62,595 nt of DNA, filler included, from Sphacelaria rigidula (GCA_964200075.2; 9 parts of 9 records of this genome joined end to end with filler, not necessarily neighbours in it); one strand, 5' to 3'; numbered from the whole stretch's first letter, positions 6,781 to 59,016 are shown. Numbers and translations are program-made. Notes: generated by a model not told the origin, from the letters alone.

Positions 6781-6867
6781 GGAATCGGGGGGGGGGGGGG
6801 GGAATCTGAAAAAAACACCCACCAAGGCAGGGGGCCCCTAAAATCAACCAAGTAGCCCCCAAATTTC

Positions 6868-9862: not shown

Positions 9863-10800
9863 GTGCAGTCCACTCCAGACTCAAAAGGGAAACATTCGCC
9901 ACCATGCATCCGGGCCCATCTCTCCTCCGAACCCAACTCCTTCCAAGCAGAGATTTCACGACATACCTTCGCCGATCTAGTATAATAATAACGCTCCATG
10001 ATCCCGGTGCTCCATACCACGACAAAATCGTAGGATACACAAAATACCGTACACCTCAACCACTACCGAGGAGGCACAGCTACAGAGCCCCCTCCTCCCT
10101 CCCCCGCTCCGTCTAGAAAGGGATGCATGGTCAATGGTCAAACGACAAAGGCAAGCAACAAATGAGTACGCCCCCCTCCCCTCCCCCAAACCTACACTCT
10201 TTGAAAGAAGAGACGAAAAAACGTGTCTGTACAACGTCAACATGCACACACCGGGGTGTCCTACGTCACGACCACAATGTCATGAGAACAGCAGGAAGAC
10301 TGTAGTTGGGAACCGGTGTAGCCTCTCTCTCCCACATCAATTTTCGTCGAACAGCGACCCCGCGTTTTGTCTCCGTCTAGCGCTCATATCATTTCTTCGC
10401 GGATTGCTGCTCTTTTGCTCCTGTCCCCAGCAGACGACGACACAGACAAACGCGGTACGTGAGCGTTTTTCAAAATCCCAATCGGATTTACTGAGATAGC
10501 CAGCCTGAAAGTCTGCACATCGTGCATACAGAGGTACAGTATGTAGTGGAGCAGAACGGATCGTCCGTCAGCAACCCCTACAGGAACATGCCGGAGTTAC
10601 ACGGTTTCATGTGTTCCGTAACAATTTAATTGCCCCGCGGCATGAGAAGGTGAGAGATAAACCCAAGCTTTTCATGGTGAGGCAGACAAGCTGTCACGGG
10701 TAATCATAAACTTGGGTCACACTACAAGCCATGATGGTATCTCCAAACACGTGGAAACGTATCAACATGAGGAGAAGGATCGTGCACGTGTACTAGACTA

Positions 10801-31800: not shown

Positions 31801-32107
31801 GTGGCATACAGAAACAGTTCTAAGCATACTCGATCACGTACGTCAGAACTAAAATCCGTCACCGTGGCGGAGTGCTTCGAATGCCCCCCCCCCCCCAAAT
31901 GTTGGAGGTGTCTATAAGGAGTAGGAAGGGTGTTCCGTCTCGAAAGGGATGCGCGGTTAATGGTCAAACGACCAAGGCAAGCAACAAATGAGTACGTCCC
32001 TCCCCCACCCCCCCCCTCTGCAACGTAATTATCTCTACTTTTCCATAAAAGGTATATTCGACTGAAGCGTGAAAACACGACGGTATTCATGCACTGTGAG
32101 CCCGCAG

Positions 32108-38266: not shown

Positions 38267-40887
38267 TTACTCATAGGAATGTAATACAGAGTATCACGGA
38301 GGTTACCTTTACCCCTAATGCCCGTCACCCGTATTCAGTAGAGTATGACTCTAGATGCCGTAGGCAGTCTTGTACGAAAAAGTCTTCAACATAAGGTGGG
38401 GATAACGGTACCGATTGCATCTGCACAGCAGTCGCCAGGCTGCGTCTGCCTACACAGCTATCTTCGCTTGAATGAAAACTGTTCCGAAATCACGCCAATG
38501 GGACGCTTTTTTTCCTGTTTTTTTATTCTTCATACTCGAGAATTAACACGCCCCACTACCCCCAACTTACCACCCTCCCAGCACCCGTGCCATCTCAACA
38601 CAGACACANNNNNNNNNNACCGTTCCCCCCCCCCCCCCCGCGCTACTCTGCCTCTTTTTTTTTTTTTTTTTTTTCCCCCTACTTTCCCCCCCCCCCCCCC
38701 CCCCCCTCCCTCCCTCCATAAGGTTTTTGTGTAATGTATGGAAGAAACTTGATGAGCGCCGGAATGTTCAAGGTGACTCCATGAGGGGTAGGAACGGTGC
38801 TCCGTCTCGAAAGAGATGCGTGGTCAATGGTCAAACGACTAAGTCAAGCAACAAATTAGTACACCACCCCCCCCCTCTTTTCTCCTGGTCTTATGACCAT
38901 GGCATGCATGATCATGAGAACATCCCCTCTTTTCTCCAGATGAGCCCGTCTTAGTCTCAAAGGGTTAGTGCCGCTCTACCCCCAGGATATTTAATTTAAC
39001 AATGGTATCGAGCGTTGGACGAGGCACTCCCGTAGTCCTTATGTTGATTTTCCACCGAAATTTGACTCTGCTACGTAAACACCTCCCGGAGTAATTCTAC
39101 GGTAGGGTTATACTTTCCAGTTTAAACGTTTTCTGAGGCTGTACAACAAGGCCCAGATCTTTGTCACCGAGAGGCACGCACAGTGTAGAACCACAGAAGA
39201 AAATATGTGCATCCCTGCCGTAGAGCCACTCCCTGGCCGTTTTCGCCACGAAAAAGCGGTCACTCTTGGGATAAATAATGTGTATATATGTTTATCACTT
39301 TCGTAGCAGAACCCCACGGAGTTCGTTCAAACTGGCGTTGGCGCGATTGCGAAGCGTCATATTTTGTCATACGAGCATATTGCGGTTTATAGTACTCTGT
39401 TGACGAACGAATGCGGCCGCTAGGGGGATCTGTTGTGGTCGGCAGTGTCTATTGGTCGATGCCAATATGTATATATTCAATGACTTGACATTTCGATATA
39501 AATCGATCAGAAATACCCACGATGCTGTCTTTTATCCACTGACTGTACGCACGTTGTGGTCATTGTACTTCACTTTTCTTCAGCGAATGTTCCCGTTTTG
39601 TAGTTTCATCTCGGGTACTACGCCTATCTCGTGACCCGTGGCGGGATCCACGAGGGATCAGTTAAAGTGCGACAATGAATGAATGCATGAATGAATCGAT
39701 CAATCAACTCATAATTATATTCAAGGTTCCCCTTCGGGAGGTTAGTACAGGCCTCCTGGAGGTGACGCGAGTCGAAAATATATGGTTAAGAGAGGCTCTT
39801 GTATCTCAATGTACAGTAAGTGATCGTGGCTGTAAAAATATCGCATGTGTTATCAAATGTCGTTCGGAAATACGGGAATTCGGACGGAAGCCGACGGCGG
39901 AACCGCCAGCGTTGGACATGTGTGGTATTGCCGAGGTGCCAGGGAGCGAAGTAGCTCTCGTGCCACAGAGACATGACAGCGGGAGGCACTCCCGAAAAAT
40001 TGGAATGCGTGGGACATTCTCCCGTTTTTTGTTTCAGGTCGGCCATTTCTCTCTGTGCTTTGCTTGTGTTGACTTTTTATTACTTTTTTTATGTTACGAA
40101 TTTGCCTGCTTTATCGTTCTGTTCGACCCTCTTTATTTTTTGCTATGTTCCTTCTTTTTCTCAGAGCGTGTTTCAGTTTCGTCTTTGTTGGGTACGTCCA
40201 TCATGAGACCACGGCTGGACCCCTGGAGGGTCAGTCAAAGTGCGACAATCAATCAATAAAATCAATCAATCAATTCTTGGCATGATCTTTGTACATCGCT
40301 GTGGGTTCCATATCATCAGGCCTGTTGTAAAACAGGGTGTTTTTTTTTTGCGGCAAAACATTCCTGTGCTGCTGTGCCTCGTTCAACTCGCCAACCGCCC
40401 ATGGTAGGGTCTTGTGTTTGCTGCTGACTAAGGCCAAGGTGATGTTCAATTGTCTTCGACTGCTCTGCTCTCATGTTCTCGTGATACTGGTGGCATAACC
40501 GGTGTGCCCGTTCTCCCAAATGAACGAGAACGCGACAAGGAAAAACACGGGGGGAAAATACCCCGCCAAAAGTAATCCTGTTTGAAGTCTTCCATGAAAT
40601 TCAGCGGGCTTTTTTTGTGGTTCGGGATCGACACCCTACGAAAAGGGGCCAGTTTGAGCGACCTTCGGTGGCCAAAACACGCGCCACAGGTATCGGATGA
40701 CACCCAAACCTGAACGGTAATGTACCGTTGAATCTTCTCAGTGCGCTGCGAAAGAAACCGCGTGAAAAAAATTACTTGCCGCCAGAGGAAACTCGGGAAG
40801 AGTGGTGAAAAATGTGAAATGATACATGTACATGTATATCAAGTCGCATGCATACCATGTTTCTTTTTTCTTTTTTTTCGCGCGCAG

Positions 40888-41874: not shown

Positions 41875-42944
41875 TCAAAACGCTTCAGGAGCGTGTCCGT
41901 GAACGTGGTTGGCGTTACAGACAGCGTGCCTCTATCCTAGTCTCTATCCACTGCGCACCCCATGTACCAGGTTACCTCTCCGAGATTGTTCGTGGGGAAC
42001 GTTTTGTTGAGGATTTGGCTCACCTTTCCTACATATTCCGCAGGACCACTGATAAGGATGTTGTCCACCTGGGCAACTAAAATCACAGACAAGTCTCCTG
42101 CATCCTCCATCTTGAAAACACATGGACCAGCTTCGCACTGCACCATCCCCACATCCTCCAGTGAAGTTTGACACAGGGGACGAGACCACTGCCTGCCTGC
42201 TTGCTTGATCCCGTAAATAATGTATGCAAGCTTTACGGTCACGTCTGTCAAAACGGAGCAACCTTCAGGCAACGTCATCTATACATCAGTATCCATTTCC
42301 GCTTGAATTAAAGCCTGTGTCACATCGAAATGGTACAGCGGCCACTCTTTCTAAACTGCCACTGCCATGACCAGTTTGATGGAGGCCATGGAGAACGCTG
42401 CCGCGAGTGTCTCGAAAGTCTCGAAAGAGTCGACTGCAAAACGTTGTCCAAATCCTCGCGCCACCAACCTTGCCTTTGCCTTCGCTACAGTACTGTCTGC
42501 GTCAGTCTTCCAACTAAAAACCCACTTCGCTGAAATCACGTTTGCTGCTTCCGGTACAGGGCCAGTCGAAAATGTTCCAGCCTTTTCGTGACCTCCTAGC
42601 TCGACCTGCATCGCGCCTAACCATGCCTCTCGAAATTCTGACTTGGTAATGCTATCCATACTGGTTGGTGTTGCCTCTATTTCGCCTACGTGTAGGCCAA
42701 CTGGTAAACGCAGACCGAATTCAGGTTGCCCTACCCTGTTTTCCTCAGCGATAGAACAAAAAGTACTCGTTTTCAGCTAACTCGTGTTGAGTCAAAAAGA
42801 TTGCATCTTGCCCAGCCACCTGTCCTGCTGCCGCGGTGATCAGCTCCATGGTTGAGCATTTGTCCTCCACCATTCCCGCCAGCGCCATCTCCGCTTCCTT
42901 CTTGCTTTCCTCCTCTCCACCAGCCACCAGCGTGTCGTCTCGTG
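41875..42944 (-). mobile_element. Ty1/Copia reverse transcriptase region, pseudogenised
   Basis: AWLGAMQVEL...SAKWVFSWK...KAKARLVARGF, IYGIKQAGRQW, and VAQVDNILI (decayed YVDD), with in-frame stops. Continues at 48440-48665 (linker GRTRNQTR). Confidence 0.92.
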
Positions 42945-45900
42945 TAATCGATTACACTTACGCTCCAGGATCAGATATCAAGACTGGATCATGACGTACA
43001 CGGGAAATACGAATTAGAGATACAGTTCTGTTATTTGAGGTATACCCGATCTAGTGCTTGCAGTACAAATCTACTGGGGGCACACGCCTTCTTCGTGTGC
43101 CGAAAATACGGGATCATGACGTGTGTTTTTGTATGAACGATTTCCCGCCCCCACTTGATTCAGTTGTGTGTTATGTGTACGAAAGTGGGCAAATGTGGGT
43201 AAATTAATTACATGAACGATACCTGGTCTCAACTGGCCACGGCAGGCCTACAACTTCCTATTATGCTAGCATTAAACCTGGGTCAAGGCTCATGTACGGA
43301 CTGCTAGGGATTTACACGTCGTAGGCTTAGATCAGGCTACGCTTCGCTCAGGCGACGTCAAGGTTTTCTCAAACCGTAAAACATGGTACAAAATATCTCT
43401 ACGGTATTCAAAAGGAGAGTTAAAACGGATTTTTCAACGAGGCATCGGAACGCACATACGCCGCAGACAACAAGAAGGACACCATCACCAACGGACACCA
43501 TCACAGCGCCACAAGAGCTAACTGGAGCAGAAAGGTACCCAAGACCGGCAGCGGAAACACCACCCGGCACGCGCGTCGCCAACTCTAGCATCCAAACGCC
43601 AGTGAGCAGCTATATCAAGGACAACAGAATCAGAGCTTCTCAGCTTATATCCCAGAGGGGCGGAGGAGTCCAGGAGGCATGTAGTCATCTTTATTTTGTA
43701 TTTGTGAGCTAACCGGAGCAGCAGTAAGAGGTACCCAAGATCGGCAGCGGTAATATCCCTCGACACGCGCGTCATCCACTCTAGCATCCGAACGCCAATG
43801 AACAAGCCACGTCCGGGACGACAACGTCATCAGCTTCCCAGCTCCTACTTCAACACGAGCCGCAGTGCTCAAGAAGGCACGTTTTCCCTTTTAAATTTTT
43901 CTTTCGATTGAACATCGAATCTTGATAGAACCACCAGGATTGAAGAGTAGGGTGACTTCAAGAATGTTTTGTTATCGGTAAGTAGTCATTCTATTCTAGG
44001 TTGCGATTTAGTTTGCACATTTTCCTGCTTTTTAGAGTATCATATGCCCTTGTTCTTCTGTTGAACTGAGGTTGTTATACAACACCACACTAAATTGACA
44101 TCTGGCCTAACGTGTAACGTGTCGAAGATTCATTTTGCAGGCTTACAGTCGGATTGGTTTTAGTCGGCAATACATTGCCCTTCCCTTTTATCCCCTGTTT
44201 TTTGGACCACTGTTATGCCCTGCCCATCTATGCAGTATCTTTCGTACATGAATGCCCCGAGGGTATGGATGTAATTTCATATTTCGTCATGTAGGCGTGT
44301 TATATTCCGTCATCTACCTTCATTGCGTAGTTGACAGGTCGCCCGATGTAATGTTTCGAATTCATGAATCATCATTTTTGTTTGGATCGAGGACGAGTTT
44401 TTCAAAAGTGTGTAGTGTTGTTGGTTTTCTTTTCCATTCAGCATCACGCCCTGATCGCTCTGTAATGAGACGGAGCGCAAGTGTGATTTTGGAATGTTTC
44501 ATGTGTGCCCTACTTTGGTTCTCATGTGCTTGAGACTTTGGTTTTTTCCTTCTCCACTGCAGAATGATATGATCCCCTTGACTGTAGAAGGGGGTGTTAT
44601 ATTCCGTCATCTATGGTAGTTGAACTTCCATTTTTGACTCTAGATGACTTCGACGAGAGATGCTGCGTTATACATACATGTTGCCTTGTGTGCACAGCTA
44701 CTTGTGTTCCAAACTGAAATGATTGAAAGTCGTGAATTCAACTGACCGCGATGTACAGTACAGGAGGGCAAGATCGCATTAGCTCGTGATATGAGATGCG
44801 GTTGCTTTTCGTGTTGTCGGACATTGGACGCTGATCAAGCACGTTGAGCGCGCAGACTGCAAACAGAAACGGAATTGGGAAGTGTTATGAATGATTTTAC
44901 GTAGCATTTCTCATGTTCAACTATTTTCTGTATACTGTACTCCAGGCTGATCACTGCTTGTAGACTGTACTGCATTATAGTCTGCTGTGTATTGGCGTAT
45001 GATCGAAGTATCTTGTCCTACAATAACGGTACATTTCTCATTTTGCGGGCAAATGCGGACCAACGAATGATTTTTGTTCTTTTCGTTTCAAGAAATTGTT
45101 TGTTGAACATGCTTACACTATTTGTAGAGTGTACATGGTTCCCCGCATACAAACATGTAGAGAAAACACGTTGAGCAAGAATGTACTGCTCAAAATTTCC
45201 ATGTTTCCCCCCCGGTTGATCAAGATTATTGGTCCACAGTATAGTATAGCTTGACAAACTTGTGTGACCTACATTGAGTGTAGTTGAATACAGTACCACT
45301 GCGTGTGTGAGTCGTCCCATCCATCCCGGATGCCAGTATACACCTTTCGGTACATGAGGGCGCACCAGCCGGAGTCTGACAGGAGGAGGGTCAACACAGG
45401 ATTTGTTTTTGTTCCCTGTTTTTCTTTGGTACCCCACGTCTCATACTTGCGTGTATATTTTTTTGTTGCGACGAAAGTTGAGCGCAGTCCCTTCCCCTGC
45501 TGGGGGTCCGCTCGTCGACCGTTGGGGCAGAGTTTGTGTACTCACGGCATGAAACTCTGAAATGTTTTCACAAAATTCATTTTTTTTGTTGCGTTGCGAG
45601 GAAAGACCCATGGGTTTGTAGGGGAGGAATTTCATCTTTGATATGATGGATGTACGGTGTATTCGAATACTTTTCGCATTTTTGCATGAAATACAACGGA
45701 CGACTTATCTCTGCGATTATTTTCTACCGCACGTGTGCCCTGCCCCCAGTGCTGTGAGCCACTCTCTATGGCGAAGCAACTGCTTTCGAACCCAGGCGGA
45801 CGTACACAAAAATGACGAAGCCCGGACCGTGACACCGCAAGAACCAAACGGAAAACAGCGACCGCGGCCTGGGCGACGACAGCACAACCGCTCGGGGGGC

Positions 45901-48439
45901 TTAGCAGGAGTCAGGGCAGGAACCAGACACGCTTTGGCATTTAGGTTTTTATCATTTGATTTCTTTGGGAGTTTGCATTTGATTCGGAATGTTTTCGTCT
46001 CGTTGTTCGCAGCAACGTGACATGTCAAACATGTGTACCGTTCCGTGGTTGCATTTTTTTGTTTGATTGTTCTAGTTTTTGTTCCCTACGCCCTATGAAG
46101 TACTACCGTAGTTTTGTTATGATTTTTTTAACTTGATCCTCCACATGATTGCGATGATTTTTTTTAATTATCGAGAAAGGAAATAATTGGGGGGGAATTG
46201 ACTATTTGCTTCCATGATTCTCTTTTCGGGTAATTAAAAGCGAAGAAAACTCATGTGATTGGGGTTATCCACAGCGGAGTATTTTGGGAGAAAAATCATG
46301 TGATGGGATGATCCACGGCGGGGTATTTGGGATAATTTGATGAATCGGTTATGGATTTCGAAAAGGGAATTTGATATTTTGCGATCCGCGCTAAAACATT
46401 TTTGGCAAAGCGATTCACCGGCTCTGGGTTTTGGGTTGGACATTTTCAATGACGGAAAGAACATGGCGTGGATCGAGAATACTTCCGAGAGTAGAATGGT
46501 TTTTCGTCTTGGGTGTCACTAAACAGTTGACTACCCACCCGCCGTTCAAAATGCGGGACCGACTATGCACCAGGATAACTCACGACAATTGACTCTGGGG
46601 TCATCGATGTTATGTTTTCATGTACTACCTGGAAGTAATACTCCCTGCAAAATAATATGTAATATTGAATCGGGGGGGGGCATTTTAATACGGAGTAGTT
46701 TATATTATGTTCTCTCCAGGGTGTGGCGTTTATTCAACGAGTAATATCCGTCCTGATATTTGGGTGAGTGTGCTGTTTATGCAGAGTAACTTCTCATCCG
46801 ACTTCTTTGCATGCACTTGGACTTTGGTGTACAGGAATTGATTGTTTTGAAAGAAAAAATATTCGAAGAGTAGGACGATGAGTTTGACGAGTTTAGGAAT
46901 TTATCGGGCCGGACGACGAGCGAAATTTGCATCAAAGATCAGTAATTCGAAATTAAGTGGACTAATCAATCGCTGGTTTTGGTTACAATATATTTAGTGC
47001 TTACAGAGTTTGGTTTTATGTTTCGAGTTACTCCCTGATGGGATACAATCAGTACAAGTCGTTGTGAAATGCACGAGTGTACTGGTACATTAATTTTCTC
47101 TGGGTTTTCTAGGGTCTATGAAGTGAACGAGGTTAAAAGAGATTTTTTCGTGTTCTGACATTAAAAGCACCCAAGCTTGCAAGTTTTCACTGATGTGGGT
47201 TCTATCAACTATTCCCGGCAGTTGATAGATGGTCGACATCAGGGAGGCTAATGTTGTTTTTCTAGGATACAGAGTGGTACAAACACGAGCAGACCTTGTG
47301 TTCTTATGTTCGGACGGATGGAAAATCTATATATTTTGTATTCGAGCATACCTCTAGTGTGAGCGATTTGAACTTGAATTGATTCGATTTGAGTTTGTAT
47401 TTTGTTCTCGAACTCGAGGGGAAGTGGTACACACACCACTACTGCAAGTTTTCATTTTGCAGTGTTTATTTTTCATACTATTTCGAGGAGTCATGTTATT
47501 ATTCAGTGGAATGATATCTCGGTCACTGGACATGTTGAATGTGGACACTTGCCTGGTGTAGACCGTGTTGTAGACGGTATGTTGAATCGAATTTCACATA
47601 GACAACAGCATCTTGTTACCATGAGAATAGTGCGTTTTTGACATATTCGAGTATTGGAAGGTTGAGTGTGTTTCTCCAATGTCATCATGGAAACTGAGGA
47701 GTAAGAAAAGGGTGTCCACTGTGCATTCATGTGTGATTTTTAGTTGTTCCAAGAAAGATTTGGGAACTGGTAATGGTTGAGATTGATACACATATATCTA
47801 TTTGTGTTGTGCTGACTAACGCAAACAATTGTTGAAATGGAGCATGGATAGGTTACAAGGAACGGATTATATTCAGGATTTGAGCTTTCGATTGCTAAAA
47901 TAGACGAGTTTGTGACGTCTGCGCGTGGCTAAAAAGGTTTTTTCCTGACGGAATCGGGTGTTCTTTTTCAATTATTGGTAATATAGTGTTGGATTCATGT
48001 CATGAAAAACTGACATATTTTCGCGTTTTAGAGTGAGGCACTATGTATTCAGGATAAACTATCAGTCCAAGAGCCGTAAGCAGGGAGGCTAATCGATTAC
48101 ACTTACGCTCCAGGATCAGATATCAAGACTGGATCATGACGTACGCGGGAAATACGACTTAGAGATACAGTTCTGTTATTTGAGGTATACCCGATCTAGT
48201 GCTTGCGGTACAAATCTACTGGGGGCACACGCCTTCTTCGTGTGCCGAAAATACGGGATCATGACGTGTGATTGTGTATGAACGATTTCCCGCCCCCACT
48301 TGATTCAGTTGTGTGTTATGTGTACGAGAGTGGGCAAATGTGGGTAAATTAATTACATGAACGATACCTGGTCTCAACTGGCCACGGCAGGCCTACAACT
48401 TCCCGCGACAATGCACCCGGTGCATGAGGCTTCCTATTA
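42945..48439 (+). mobile_element. Complete non-autonomous LTR element (LARD-like) nested in the Copia
   Basis: LTRs at 42945-43263 and 48090-48439 (TAATCG...CTATTA); TSD TCGTG at 42940-42944 and 48440-48444; purine tract AAGCAGGGAGGC just before the 3' LTR; no long internal ORF. Confidence 0.88.
45302..45640 (-). mobile_element. SINE family 1-related body inside the LARD
   Basis: GGGCGCACCAGCCGGAGTCTGACAGGAGGAGGGTCAACACAGGA matches 60590-60635; another fragment at ~8430-8540. Confidence 0.7.
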
Positions 48440-48765
48440 TCGTGCGTGCACCGATCCCATTGCCTCGCGGGTTTGGTTCCTCGTACGTCCCGTCCTTGGT
48501 GTTGGTACCCGGTCAGCCCACGCAAGACGGCGTTGCTCGGTCCTCTGGAGTTGAGGAGCGTCGCCCCCCCCCCCCGCCATCTTGCGAGGGACCCGTGGAA
48601 GAGGGTGACAGTGCGGGCGACGAGGCAGTGTCCGATGCCGATGTGAGCGTCGGCGTAGGTGCCTGNNNNNNNNNNNNNNNNNNNNNNNNNNNNNNNNNNN
48701 NNNNNNNNNTTAATTAATTAANNNNNNNNNNNNNNNNNNNNNNNNNNNNNNNNNNNNNNNNNNNN

Positions 48766-50676
48766 TCTACCAACGGGGCGATTACCTGTGCGAGATTCGG
48801 AATAAATGTTCTTACAAAAGTAATCGTCCCTAACACTGAACGTAATTGTTTGATGTTCGTTGGTGTAGGTAAATCTAAGATGGCCTTTACGCGGTCTTCC
48901 CCAATTTTGATCCCGTCAGCGGACAAAGTGTAACCGAGGTACTTGACCTCCTTGGGACCAAACTGTGCTTTAGAGGGCTTTAGGGTAAGACCTGCTTTTT
49001 TCAGTGCTTTGAACATGTCTTCCAGTAGAGTGAGGTGACTTTCCCATGAGGAGGAGCAGGCGATCAAATCATCCATGTACAACAACAGACCGCTCCTGGG
49101 GGTCCAAAGTGTGAGAAGGTAAGAGCCATTATTCACGAGAAAATGAACGGGGAAGATGCCAGGTCGAACGGTAACCTGTTGAAAACCCACTTACCTTTCT
49201 CTGTAATAAAGGCCGTTTTTTCTTTCTCCTCCGCTATTGGGATCTGATGGAACGCGCTCTGTACATCAAAGACAGAGATCAATTTGGCGCCTGCCACCGT
49301 ATCTACACGACTTTCCAAATTAGGCATTGGCCATGACTTGCGCACAAGACTTTTATTGAGCGTGGATCTGTAGTCAACACAAAATCGGGCAGTACCATCA
49401 TGTTTAGCTACGATCGTCACTGCCGAGCCCCATGAGCTGGGTCTCTGTTCGATTATGCCGTATTTTCCCATCTCCTGTACACAGTTGTCAATGACTTCTT
49501 GAATTCTGGGGTTGGCTCTGTACGGGGCCCGATCGATGGGCTTGGTACCCGGGGCAAGGGGAGAAGTTGCTTCCCCAATTGTGCAACAACCTAATTCTCG
49601 TTGTGACAGTGAGAAGACGGACCTGTATTTGATGCATAGGTCGAGCACTTGACTCTTCTGATTTTCAGAAAACGTGCTATATTTATATGCATTTTGGAGC
49701 GCTATTGTAAGTTCTTCTCGGGCGTCAGTATTTTGCCGTTCAGCTTGTGAAATTGCACGGACCGTCGGGTTATTTGTTTCAACTTGTGAAAGTTGACTGG
49801 CGGTTCCTGTCGGGTCATTTTTTCCGACTTGTGTGATGTGTCCCAAAAGTAAATTTCTTGGGAGTTGGACGTGTCTATTCGACGGGTTTGCTACTTGTGC
49901 CATAGCTGTTTTGTTGACCGCTGACCAGATGCAAGCTGTGCGTGCTACAACGAGGCGGCTAAAAGCATCCGGTACTTTGTTGGATTGGAGGTCTTCACTC
50001 GTTACAATTCTTGGCTCAATGACCGCTTCAGTCGTAAATTTTGGCGGCTCATTTGTTTCGACCAAGAGAGCCATCTCACTTCGCGGCGGGACGGAGCATC
50101 TTTTTGAGAGGTACACCGGTACATTTTCAGCCGATGCTACCCGTATGACAGAACAATAATAATATTCTGAAAACTTCGGATGAACTTTTCTGTCTCTTCT
50201 TCGATGAGTAGCTGTTAGGCGAACTGTTGAACTACGAAACGCCAGGGTTTCTTCCTGCCAATCGAGGCTCCCGCCAAATGCGCTCATCACCGAATTCTCT
50301 ATCAGCATGAGATCTGGCCTGAGATTCCTGAGGACAAATGCTTCAACGGGCAAGATTATGTCACCCAGCTTGAGGTCAAAGCGAATGAATCCCTTATCGT
50401 GATTGGGGAACCGTCAGCACTTCGTAGATCTATAGAACACGATGGGACGGATTGAATGCCCTGCTCTCTCAAAGTAGGATGTGCACGAATGAACTTGAGA
50501 CTGATTATGGAAAGATCCGAAGCAGTATTAATGGTTATGGCCGGAACCTCCATTCCGTTGACTCTGGCGGGAACCTGCACTCTTGCTGATGCAGGTCGTA
50601 ACGTTGCCGGCTTCCTAGGGTAGCGGGCCAACGAAGACATGAAGAAAGGCTCGAATTCTGCCGAGCCTGGGGGCAA
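48766..50676 (-). mobile_element. Ty3/Gypsy pol (protease-RT), frameshifted and 3'-truncated by the contig end
   Basis: Decayed protease motif ITINTASDLSII; RT motifs SSWGSAVTIVAK...RFCVDYR, DVQSAFHQIPI, KTAF...RLPF, LLYMDDLI, KYLGY; frameshifts near 50355 and 49140. Confidence 0.93.
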
Positions 50677-53701: not shown

Positions 53702-54027
53702 GAGTCATCCTACGATAGGGGGGGGGGGGAGGGGTGTACTCATGATCATGCATACCATAGTCATCAGACCATTGACCTCGCATCCTACGATAGGGGTGGG
53801 GGTATTTGATTGCACGAAAAAAGAGGCTTATAAGTGTGTCAGACGATCTGCCACACTCGCGGTGCGCTCGTATTTGGTTCAAAACGATGTCAGCCGGCAT
53901 GAATGAGCGTTAAGTATCTACAACAAGCTTGTTCGAGCAACCGCTGCTGCTTTTAGGGACGATTTGACCTGGAATTTCGTGCACGAAAGGGCCCGAAATA
54001 CCCCCCCCCCCTATCGTAGGATGACTC
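53702..54027. mobile_element. MITE with GAG...CTC TIRs and 4-bp TSD (Sola-like)
   Basis: AGGT|GAGTCATCCTACGATAGGGGG...CCCCCTATCGTAGGATGACTC|AGGT; partial copies at 20736-20801 and 55235-55375. Confidence 0.85.
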
Positions 54028-57002: not shown

Positions 57003-59016
57003 CGGGGGGGCGGGAAGGGGGCGTACTCATTTGTTGCTTGCCGTAGTCGTGTTACCATTGACCACGCATCCCTTTCGAGACAGCACCGTTCTTAGTCCTC
57101 ATAGGGACACCTTCGACATTTGGCCGCTCATTACGTTCCTTCCATACATTACACAAAAACCTTTTCCATATCTTATCCCCTTCCGGTTTCACCGTCTGTG
57201 GCCACCACCTATCTCCTAGTTTAGTTATCGTCTTCTCTCTAATGTCTAATGAATCAAACGGTTTCATGCCACTTTCGTGTGCTTCCCTCTAACACTTCCT
57301 GCTCCTTCTTGTATAGTCCACATCCTCCCACTTCATGAGTTTCACTCTCTGTTTCTTCCTCCTCCATCCGAGTACGAATTGGTATACCATTTTTTTTCTT
57401 CTTTCTGGCAGGTCCAGGTCCCCCACCCGAAAACGCACTTTCAACTTTTCCGCGTAGTCTAGTGGGCCATGCAAATATATTTCCATCCCCATCTCATCTT
57501 CAAAGCCCACGTATATCTTCAGGTGTTCTTCCTCGTCTACTTTCCGTCTTAGCGATCGTTTCCCGTTATTTCCGTCAAATATCTTACTGTATCTTGTACA
57601 CCCACATTCACCTATGGACAATATCTCCTCTTGGTTTCCTCCCATGTCCTTCAATACTTTGCGACTACCCTATCCCACCTTAGTACAGCCCGCCCTTTCG
57701 TTACTTGCTTATAACTCCATCAACCATGGCTGGCAATCTCTTTCTTGGGATGTTCCTTGCGTTACACTGTCATTTCACTTTTACCATGTCTCCATTCGTT
57801 TCAAGTGAGAACATTCCCAACTCTGCTCTCAAAATTGTATAACTCGTCGTTTGCGAGCATCTAAGTATTTTCTTAGCTGCTACCATCTTCACTGTTTGCA
57901 TACCCTGGCTTTGGTACGATCACATTAATTAAAAAAAAAAATCTTTATCCTAGAATCTAGGCTTTGTTTTCAGCATTATCTCTCACGTTCGCGCACCCCA
58001 GGCACGTGGAATAGCGCAAAAATTGTGTGGATACATTTTTGACCAGCGGTCGACGTCGGTTCTCTCTTCAGAGCACTGAGTAGTGTTGACCACTTGGTCG
58101 ATTAGAACCTTCCCGGAATTTTATTACTTGGCTTGAGTGTCAACACCGATATTCAGATCTTTAGCGGGGCTGACAGCCCTAACTGCCCCTCGCGTGCGCA
58201 GAACGCATTTTCATCCAAATCGGCGCCTGCAGCGTCGTTTTTTGGTCTGCCCACGCCACACTTTGCCTGGGCAATGCTTCGCACATCCCTCGTCCGAGGG
58301 TTCTCGGTATTCCTTGGGTTGGGGTCAGGGTTGGGGTTTTTAGCGTTTTTCAAATATATATGTTTCCGAAAAAATTCTTCGTCGATCAAGTGGTGAACAC
58401 ATCTCAGAGCACTCAAGCCTCAGAAATCGTAGATTTGGCGATGGGAACCATCCGCCAACATCCATCCCGATATCGTATCTTCCCCCACCCTGACCCCTTG
58501 CTCTACTGGTCGTATCGCTGCTTCATCATTGATTATTTCCGCACATAAGTCTGCCATGTCATTGATAAATACCTCGGGTAAAGTGGGTGATAACGTACAT
58601 CCTTGTGCAACTCCTTGTAAGATATCCAAATATTTCGATATTTTCCCATCTAGCATCATATACCACTTTTGGCACATTCTATTATCCGGACCATTCTCCA
58701 CATCTTCCTCTCTGATCCCGATGCCCCACATCCTTTTCTCCAGCCCTTTTTTGCATATTGTATCATAGACCTTGTGTAGGTATAGAAGTAATCAGTACGT
58801 TGTCAACCCGGCGTCTTTCCCCACCTTGAGTAACATTACCTCGTTAGTATGTACACATGGTCTACGCAACTACAGTTTGGCCTAAAACCTGCTTGCCCCT
58901 CGCTGATTTTTTCGTCCTTATCTAGCACCGTTCCCACTCTGTAGTTCATAGTTAGGAATATTACAGGATGTTTTCCCTACAGTCCTCAGTCGCGTTATCC
59001 CTATTTAGTTCCCTGG
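57003..59016 (-). mobile_element. LINE-A non-LTR retrotransposon (RT remnant plus 3' end) in a VPS13 intron
   Basis: RT motifs LQGVAQGCTLSPTL..VFIND and ISGWMLAD (decayed FADD); terminus GGCAAGCAACAAATGAGTACGCCCC. Confidence 0.88.
58077..58406. mobile_element. MITE with TG...CA TIRs, 6-bp TSD and telomere-like repeats, nested in LINE-A
   Basis: GAGCAC|TGAGTAGTGTTGACCACTTGGTCGA...TCGATCAAGTGGTGAACACATCTCA|GAGCAC; GGGTTGGGGTCAGGGTTGGGGTT at ~58316-58338. Confidence 0.8.

Follow-up and report, generated by a model that had tools for sequence, protein, structure and literature searches.

A TA-ended large retrotransposon derivative in Sphacelaria rigidula and its probable descent from a Copia clade

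According to our analysis, positions 42940 to 48444 of a 62,595-nucleotide stretch of Sphacelaria rigidula DNA (GCA_964200075.2; this whole stretch is called the window) hold a large retrotransposon derivative (LARD) whose long terminal repeats (LTRs) start and end with TA. The best explanation, to which we give a probability of about 0.85, is that this is a real LARD, a non-autonomous derivative of a TA-ended Ty1/Copia clade that is moved in trans, most likely by the family called B below. The observations that carry this explanation are the ends, the target site duplications (TSDs), the homology with family B, a remnant of pol and an LTR recombinant between the LARD and family B. Among the features by which LARDs are recognized, it has a length above 4 kb, LTRs, a TSD, a polypurine tract (PPT), and a non-coding interior conserved across multiple copies.

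In the mechanism that we propose, the LARD would have arisen from a brown-algal Copia clade with LTRs of the form TA(or TG)ATCGA...TTA, retaining what is needed in cis, namely the att ends of the LTRs, the palindrome at the primer site, the leader, and the PPT, while its coding region was left to decay. Its RNA would be packaged, reverse-transcribed, and integrated through a 5-bp staggered cut by the proteins of the clade, with which, or with whose RNA, it is presumed to be co-packaged. For the helper itself, family B has somewhat better than even odds, and a combination of both families described below or an unseen sister family is distinctly less probable; the helper of the subtype found in the window (type 2) is the more conjectural part of this assignment.

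Structure of the element

Without its TSDs, the element measures 5495 bp. Its features, in window coordinates, are as follows.

42940..42944, plus strand: left TSD, TCGTG (sequence, copy table, and empty-site joints)
42945..43263, plus strand: 5' LTR of 319 bp, TAAT...ATTA, without the 31-bp U5 segment; U3 part about 72% identical to the family B LTR
43264..43272, plus strand: palindromic site TGCTAGCAT at the position of the primer-binding site (PBS), a 10-bp palindrome counting the last LTR A and not of the TGG type
43330..43386, plus strand: leader segment whose family B counterpart (79% identity across 57 bp) comes immediately past the PBS-position site
43515..43843, plus strand: a pair of diverged direct repeats within the interior, alignable over about 135 bp, with a 190-bp period, kept in copies
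about 47098..47257, plus strand: decayed remnant of the reverse transcriptase (RT) end and RNase H of the parent Copia clade (nhmmer)
48071..48089, plus strand: PPT region (junction alignment with families A and B)
48090..48439, plus strand: 3' LTR of 350 bp, TAAT...ATTA, with a type-2 U5 (LTR alignment)
48404..48434, plus strand: 31-bp U5 segment with a short hairpin and CTTCC microhomology at its bounds, absent from the 5' LTR
48440..48444, plus strand: right TSD, TCGTG (sequence and copy table)

Alignment of the two LTRs reproduced what the first-pass annotation had reported, i.e., lengths of 319 and 350 bp, about six substitutions and a 31-bp indel bounded by CTTCC; they differ at 6 of 319 aligned bases (1.9%) and by one 31-bp gap at 48404-48434, and since the 31-bp segment is kept in other copies, the gap reflects a deletion in the 5' LTR of the window copy. 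The PPT-like tract that had been noticed is AAGCAGGGAGGC at 48078-89, adjoining the 3' LTR. The leader segment is likely to serve as a packaging or leader signal.

The interior had been described as non-coding, which holds insofar as its longest open reading frame (ORF) is 140 amino acids (aa) long and none of the 33 interior ORFs of at least 60 aa reached the Pfam cut-off, but which overlooks the decayed RT-end/RNase H remnant, reading DRWSTSGRLM at 47224-47253. The interior is better regarded as decayed Copia pol than as a sequence that never coded. A search of Rfam gave a single chance match (E 0.15). The conserved second PPT-like tract at 47240-47252 was rejected as a central PPT since it corresponds to RNase H codons.

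Copies, termini, and age of the LARD family

The assembly scanned comprises 244 Mb in 27,214 contigs. The LTR query gave at least 41 matches (40 of 243 candidates scored), the nearest other copy among them being 93% identical, and the interior query at least 107 (40 of 1027 candidates scored), with long pieces mostly at 82-93%. Exact patterns detected 74 LTR starts and 66 LTR ends, against 0 in controls. At the fetched loci, 64 LTR starts and 66 LTR ends were read, of which 62 and 60, respectively, are TA, with variable flanks. The PPT precedes 16 of the 64 starts, where it abuts TAAT, and the remaining starts are preceded by genomic flank. Of the LTRs, 19 are solo-like in that they lack both a PPT and a clear primer site. 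A perfect 5-bp TSD is present at 11 of these and one with a single mismatch at 3; the other 5 have none (2 of them run into a degenerate primer site), and a perfect 4- or 6-bp TSD occurs in none of the 19. A second full-length LARD copy, on contig C1966, is flanked by AGCTG. Taken alone, the window copy is also compatible with a 4-bp TSD and an ATTAT end, or with a TG start, and these options are excluded because the other copies fix the ends and the 5-bp TSDs. The TAAT...ATTA ends and the TCGTG duplication reported earlier are thereby confirmed, and the search with the LTR and the tabulation of termini and TSDs across copies, which had been suggested as a check, gave consistent results.

LTR pairs of eight LARD copies diverge by 0.6-6.1%. 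The earlier description of the element as young holds in a relative sense, and notably recent mobilization is not supported, since 1.9% lies mid-range for the LARD family and its helpers and marks the window copy as one of ordinary age rather than of a fresh burst. Identical LARD copies may have been collapsed in the assembly. No interior ORF of at least 250 aa with retroelement character was found in the fetched LARD copies. Insertions share a symmetric target bias, with G at -8 in 36 of 48 cases and C at +8 in 29 of 42, against a background of about 24%. Tandem arrays also occur, as five LARD LTRs and two family B LTRs have a PPT on one side and a primer site on the other. We further observed that several LARD insertions sit within other Copia or Gypsy ORFs, and that short stretches are duplicated where the LTR meets its neighbouring sequence at two loci (in L004, 5 bases at PPT/U3; in L005, 23 bases at U5/primer).

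The parent Copia clade

Two Copia families, A and B, share the ends of the LARD, and provide the autonomous-type relatives that the first-pass annotation had proposed to look for; in both, gag, protease, rve, RVT_2, and RNase H follow in Copia order. Family A, reached through a pattern combining the PPT with the LTR start (30 matches), has an LTR of about 730 bp, and after its pol comes the 19-base PPT/U3 junction that is also found in the LARD. It has TA at all but one of 18 starts and at all 20 ends, and perfect 5-bp TSDs at three of six solo LTRs (L213, L214, and L215, not L212, L217, or L222). In family B (L043, L258), for which there are at least 65 matches (40 of 222 candidates scored), the LTR is about 400 bp long. 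Its starts are TG in 7 and TA in 5 of 12 copies, and its ends are TA in 12 of 13; the latter denominator excludes, from the 22 ends originally assigned to B, 9 that belong to type-1 LARDs (see below). Three of the TA-starting B copies form a supported sub-branch, which indicates that both starts are inherited. Neither family has TG...CA termini. TA ends thus appear to be inherited from the clade and not to be an invention of the LARD, and the occurrence of TA and TG starts within family B suggests that the ends are explained by an integrase tolerating TA-3' as well as CA-3', not by strict TA specificity.

A third family, C, was observed at L177 (G000:C25954, 1103-1591, minus strand), where a putative LTR ends in TCGATTA and is followed by CGCTTGCG and gag. 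This end is the exact inverse of the clade start TAATCGA; the start of the family C LTR is tentative. The integrases of A, B, and L177 form one clade (support 100/99) and have both the HHCC and the D,D,E motifs, and further families of this clade exist at 55-65% integrase identity. The residue after the catalytic Glu is Asn or Ser in A, B, and L177, and Arg in the other Copia sequences aligned bar one (Lys in L188 and Thr in L159 aside); Ser or Asn also stands there in 31 of 39 database homologues bearing the motif. A 7-residue insertion after the catalytic Glu is common to A, B, and L177 and to the sister sequence L178, which retains the Arg and appears to start with TA. We hypothesize that this integrase change is linked to the TA ends. 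Among solved structures, only distant foamy-virus integrases matched, and these matches end before the helix of interest. Homologues of the clade integrases are found in Ectocarpus at 41-56%.

Descent from and exchange with family B

The LARD LTR aligns to the B LTR with a score of 121, against 23.9±3.5 (maximum 37) for shuffled sequences, and the identity in U3 is 72-73% over 167 columns. The leader homology listed above and the PPT region (a 46-bp junction, 76% identical) are shared as well. A profile of the 3' pol region of the clade detected the remnant in 11 of 11 LARD copies (nhmmer, E 9e-10 to 1.5e-3) and in 0 reversed controls. In nine LARD LTRs, called type 1, the U5 end is of the B type and is followed by the B-type site CGCTAGCG; three of these are solo LTRs with perfect TSDs.

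Exchange between the two is suggested by L130, a solo LTR with the perfect TSD GGTCG which joins a LARD U3 to a B U5. Its first 200 bases group with the LARD (100/100) and are 89% identical to a type-2 copy, whereas its last 130 bases fall inside B (100/99), with 84-93% identity to B versus 65-75% to LARD type 1. First-strand transfer between co-packaged RNAs is an established mechanism, and an LTR with U3 of one element and U5 of another is the pattern expected from it; L130 is accordingly read, on its sequence, as a product of LARD recombination with family B. At L203, a LARD interior is followed by a LARD LTR running into B leader and gag (82-85% versus 63-66%). This exchange with the helper had escaped the first-pass annotation, as had the palindrome at the primer site treated below, but the proposal made there, of a LARD moved in trans by a TA-accepting integrase, is supported by the conserved ends and TSDs and by the TA-ended Copia relatives.

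Several points weigh against the preferred explanation, with family B as helper. L130 and L203 are single cases that could reflect genomic recombination or misassembly. The type-2 U5 of the window copy aligns poorly to B (53-58% over the last 130 bases), its primer site TGCTAGCA differs from the CGCTAGCG of B, and about 60 extra bases precede the shared leader. A coding element with a type-2 U5 was not found among the sites fetched from 66 exact matches. The exact 19-base PPT/U3 junction (10 PPT and 9 LTR bases) is shared with A, not with B. Insertions of A also resemble those of the LARD in favouring G at -8 (7/15) and C at +8 (10/17), with 1 of 5 at -8 in B. Finally, stops or frameshifts interrupt every A or B copy read, so that none of them is an intact helper; where the B integrase is closely matched, open frames reach 763 aa at most. 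Similarity to the LARD was absent from 20 long-ORF integrase loci and 30 rve loci. A Copia lying beside a LARD in C8675 (L032) was rejected as a partner, having its own PPT followed by TG.

Alternative explanations

It is conceivable, if unlikely, that the window subtype is in fact served by family A, with its fixed TA...TA ends, as helper; the LARD would then have come from B, and its PPT/att end would have converged on, or been taken from, that of A. The exact junction (E 2.5e-4) speaks for this, as do the LTR starts, which are TAATCGAAT in older LARDs and in B and TAATCGATT in most LARDs and in A, the G(-8) bias shared with A (17/33 pooled, p=1.5e-3), and the remnant peptide DRWS, which matches the A copy L193. 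However, the LTR bodies of LARD and A are unrelated (score 30, within the shuffle range), no leader homology and no recombinant between the two were seen, and the bias of A for C at +1 (14/17) is weak in the LARD (15/42).

We hold it no more probable that an unseen third family of the clade, collapsed or lost in the fragmented assembly, donated the R-U5-primer site of type 2 by LTR swapping and acts as helper. The weak alignability of the type-2 U5 to B, the further clade families mentioned above, and family C, whose LTR likewise ends in TTA followed by CGCTTGCG, would fit such a donor; yet, by comparison of lists, none of the 131 clade integrase matches lies on the same strand of a contig as a type-2 end, and the type-2 junction instead matches the terminal repeat of a miniature inverted-repeat transposable element (MITE).

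A tyrosine-recombinase element (Ngaro/DIRS) or a DNA-transposon derivative with direct repeats is very improbable. Palindromes at both LTR ends, the 14-17 bases shared between the U5/primer junction and the MITE terminal repeat, and the abundance of Ngaro elements in Ectocarpus would suit it, but curated Ngaro entries lack TSDs, and in place of split direct repeats, a missing TSD, and a tyrosine recombinase partner we find 5-bp TSDs, solo LTRs, a PPT, a DDE partner, and Copia homology of LTR, leader, and RNase H. Least credible of all, verging on negligible, is that the TA ends are post-insertion mutations or boundary artefacts of a TG...CA element, as the TG before TAAT at the left end of the window copy and the TG-starting B copies might suggest, since TA is kept at 62/64 and 60/66 ends despite variable flanks, perfect 5-bp TSDs sit at TA ends, the PPT abuts TAAT in 16 LTRs, and empty-site joints agree with TA ends.

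Priming site

No TGG follows the 5' LTR in the LARD, family A, or family B. Instead, the LARD and its Copia relatives have in common a palindrome, YGCTAGCR, directly after the LTR-terminal TTA, which reads TGCTAGCA in 21 of 24 type-2 LARDs, and CGCTAGCG in 2 of 3 family A copies and 4 of 7 cases of B and type 1. Both main forms are palindromic, the variants differing by a swap of C..G to T..A that keeps the palindrome, and they also fit a single primer through G-U pairs. Counted with the last LTR base, the 9-mer is perfectly palindromic in LARD type 2 and in the A copy L218, and B has an 8-bp palindrome.

In an incomplete set of 61 tRNA genes, many of them organellar, no complement to the site exceeded shuffles (best run 8-9 nt versus a shuffle mean of 9.2-9.5; 12 nt for a control half-Met site). 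No nuclear initiator Met tRNA was recovered, the initiator-Met pattern finding only a gene on a plastid contig, and an anticodon-arm pattern gave 17 matches versus 21 in the control. Tf1-like self-priming was rejected since the 8/9 complement in the window LTR is, in an alignment judged by eye, not conserved in the L121/L131 subfamily or in B. A hairpin like the Conserved Hairpin Site of fungal GalEa elements was no more stable than shuffles (fold z +1.2 to -2.1), with downstream complements of only 4-6 bp. The palindrome would be compatible with a tRNA fragment outside the incomplete set or with self- or dimer priming. Tentatively, and with more doubt than confidence, we suggest that the clade shifted TA-3' att ends, an altered integrase helix (no Arg, 7-residue insertion), and tRNA-independent palindrome priming together, the last convergently with GalEa.

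An abundant TA-flanked MITE/DNA-transposon family (L051, L052, L059, L062, L070, L076, L078, and others) has a terminal repeat with TATTATGCTAGCAT, and short forms carrying both terminal repeats are found at L076 and L078. The same motif occurs at the LTR-end/primer junction of type-2 LARDs, where the shared run reaches 17 bases with L076. This likeness, noticed post hoc, may mean that the type-2 subtype rebuilt its primer site from a MITE terminal repeat.

Genomic setting and other loci

Linkers of the form N50-TTAATTAATTAA-N50 occur at window positions 6867, 13834, 20801, 27767, 34733, 41699, 48665, and 55630, about 6.95 kb apart; the window is thus a concatenation of unplaced contigs of about 6.9 kb, and flanks across linkers are not genomic neighbours. 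The whole LARD is contained in contig G000:C17685, inside a Copia element of a family distinct from the LARD's parents:

41937..42939, minus strand: host Copia, RT part, with two RVT_2 pieces in different frames
48445..48665, minus strand: host Copia, linker between integrase and RT, upstream of the insertion and up to the contig end (frame reading and empty-site joints)

The earlier statement that removal of the element restores the Copia frame stands: the two flanks, each read alone, carry on one minus-strand frame between the host RVT_2 matches. The host is itself broken, and two of its ORFs match RVT_2 (Pfam). In contigs from three of four public runs, a joint omits exactly 5500 bases at the LARD position, running from 42939 to 48440 with 5 ambiguous letters (runs X1 and X6) or from 42941 to 48442 (run X4), which indicates that the host Copia has further copies in which this site is empty. 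Its nearest relative among the fetched loci is the sister Copia lineage L178 (G000:C21338), with a PPT followed by TA.

On the next contig, window 49133-50413 (minus strand) holds a 426-aa ORF that RVT_1 matches weakly (E 6e-5) and that resembles a long interspersed nuclear element. Dispersed repeats ending in poly-C/G (D3, D4, D7, and D8) recur across many window contigs (67-200, 10108-10187, 31934-32013, 38801-38880, 53718-53785, and 57004-57081), and resemble, by description alone, Ectocarpus RTEX-N1. Elsewhere in the assembly we noted an apparently intact Copia with a 1597-aa ORF, LTRs 97.5% alike, and a primer site of the half-tRNA-Met type (L172, G000:C1999), a 1537-aa ORF with LTRs 99.7% alike (L173, C1322), and a Gypsy-type element with an open frame of 2075 aa (L171, G000:C4324). 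Two tRNA genes nearly identical in body, L104 and L109 (G000:C562 and C20961), are called Lys(CTT) and Glu(CTC), possibly by anticodon shift or because one is a pseudogene.

Significance

The ends represent a known kind of exception; what is new is that a parent can be traced, that one LTR is recombinant, and that the primer site is a palindrome. For annotation, filters based on TG..CA would miss or mis-bound the whole Copia clade together with its LARD, and the PBS would not be detectable. Unlike in many other cases, the parent of the LARD could be identified, and the LARD bears a footprint of recombination with it; the palindromic primer site adds a second lineage, outside fungi, to the unexplained question of GalEa-type priming. 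Should the coupled shift of ends, integrase, and priming prove true, the ORF-less LARD would make a minimal test substrate.

Comparison with known systems

The first-pass annotation had treated TA...TA ends as a rare surprise, a view that is unsupported or at least overstated, as AtRE1 has TA...TA ends and LTR_retriever searches seven non-canonical motifs (10.1101/137141), lotus has 154 TATA copies (PMC9804982), and in Ectocarpus the noncanonical flag is set for 10 consensus entries, among them Copia with TA-CA and TGT-TTA (PMC12477816). The AtRE1, lotus, and grape TATA elements resemble the present clade in their Copia machinery, TA...TA ends, and short LTRs; they differ in being autonomous elements of land plants, and the likeness noted here is one of features.

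Closer in host are the Copia elements of Ectocarpus, in which ends other than TG/CA are common. The curated Copia there all have a 5-bp TSD (4 bp in Gypsy), and some share non-canonical ends or are non-autonomous partners: Copia-1 has TA-CA ends and a 332-353-bp LTR, Copia-8 has TGT-TTA ends, and Copia-N5 is non-autonomous, 3.9 kb long, with a 331-bp LTR (PMC12477816). In the part of the Ectocarpus table covered, no LTR entry had TA-TA, and two "TA-TA" entries were Mariner termini, 2/5 shown (PMC12477816). TRIM (terminal-repeat retrotransposon in miniature) and LARD elements have been reported in Ectocarpus (PMC3145265), and the LARD family may already be catalogued, the comparison with Ectocarpus entries having been made by the termini table, not by sequence. 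The literature, in a mostly open-access coverage, gave no brown-algal Copia clade with TA...TA ends or a palindromic PBS.

The element agrees with the LARD definition (PMC4350172) in exceeding 4 kb, having LTRs and no coding ORF, being multi-copy, and probably moving in trans, and departs from a typical LARD in its TA...TA ends, its non-TGG primer site, and its traceable parent with a pol remnant. In fungal GalEa Copia, a palindrome replaces the tRNA PBS, unexplained by its authors; the Conserved Hairpin Site begins where the 5' LTR stops, and its 9 bases form a palindrome together with the terminal A of the LTR, as here. The present clade lacks two further traits of GalEa, the TGT...CA ends and a complementary second 9-mer located 12-41 bp downstream (PMC5445492).

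Recombination during reverse transcription has been reviewed (PMC6894440). One clear case (L130) and one junction (L203) here resemble LTR swapping, in which an LTR draws its U3 from one element and its R-U5 from a partner. Such swapping between autonomous and non-autonomous elements was reportedly described in soybean by Du and colleagues in 2010.

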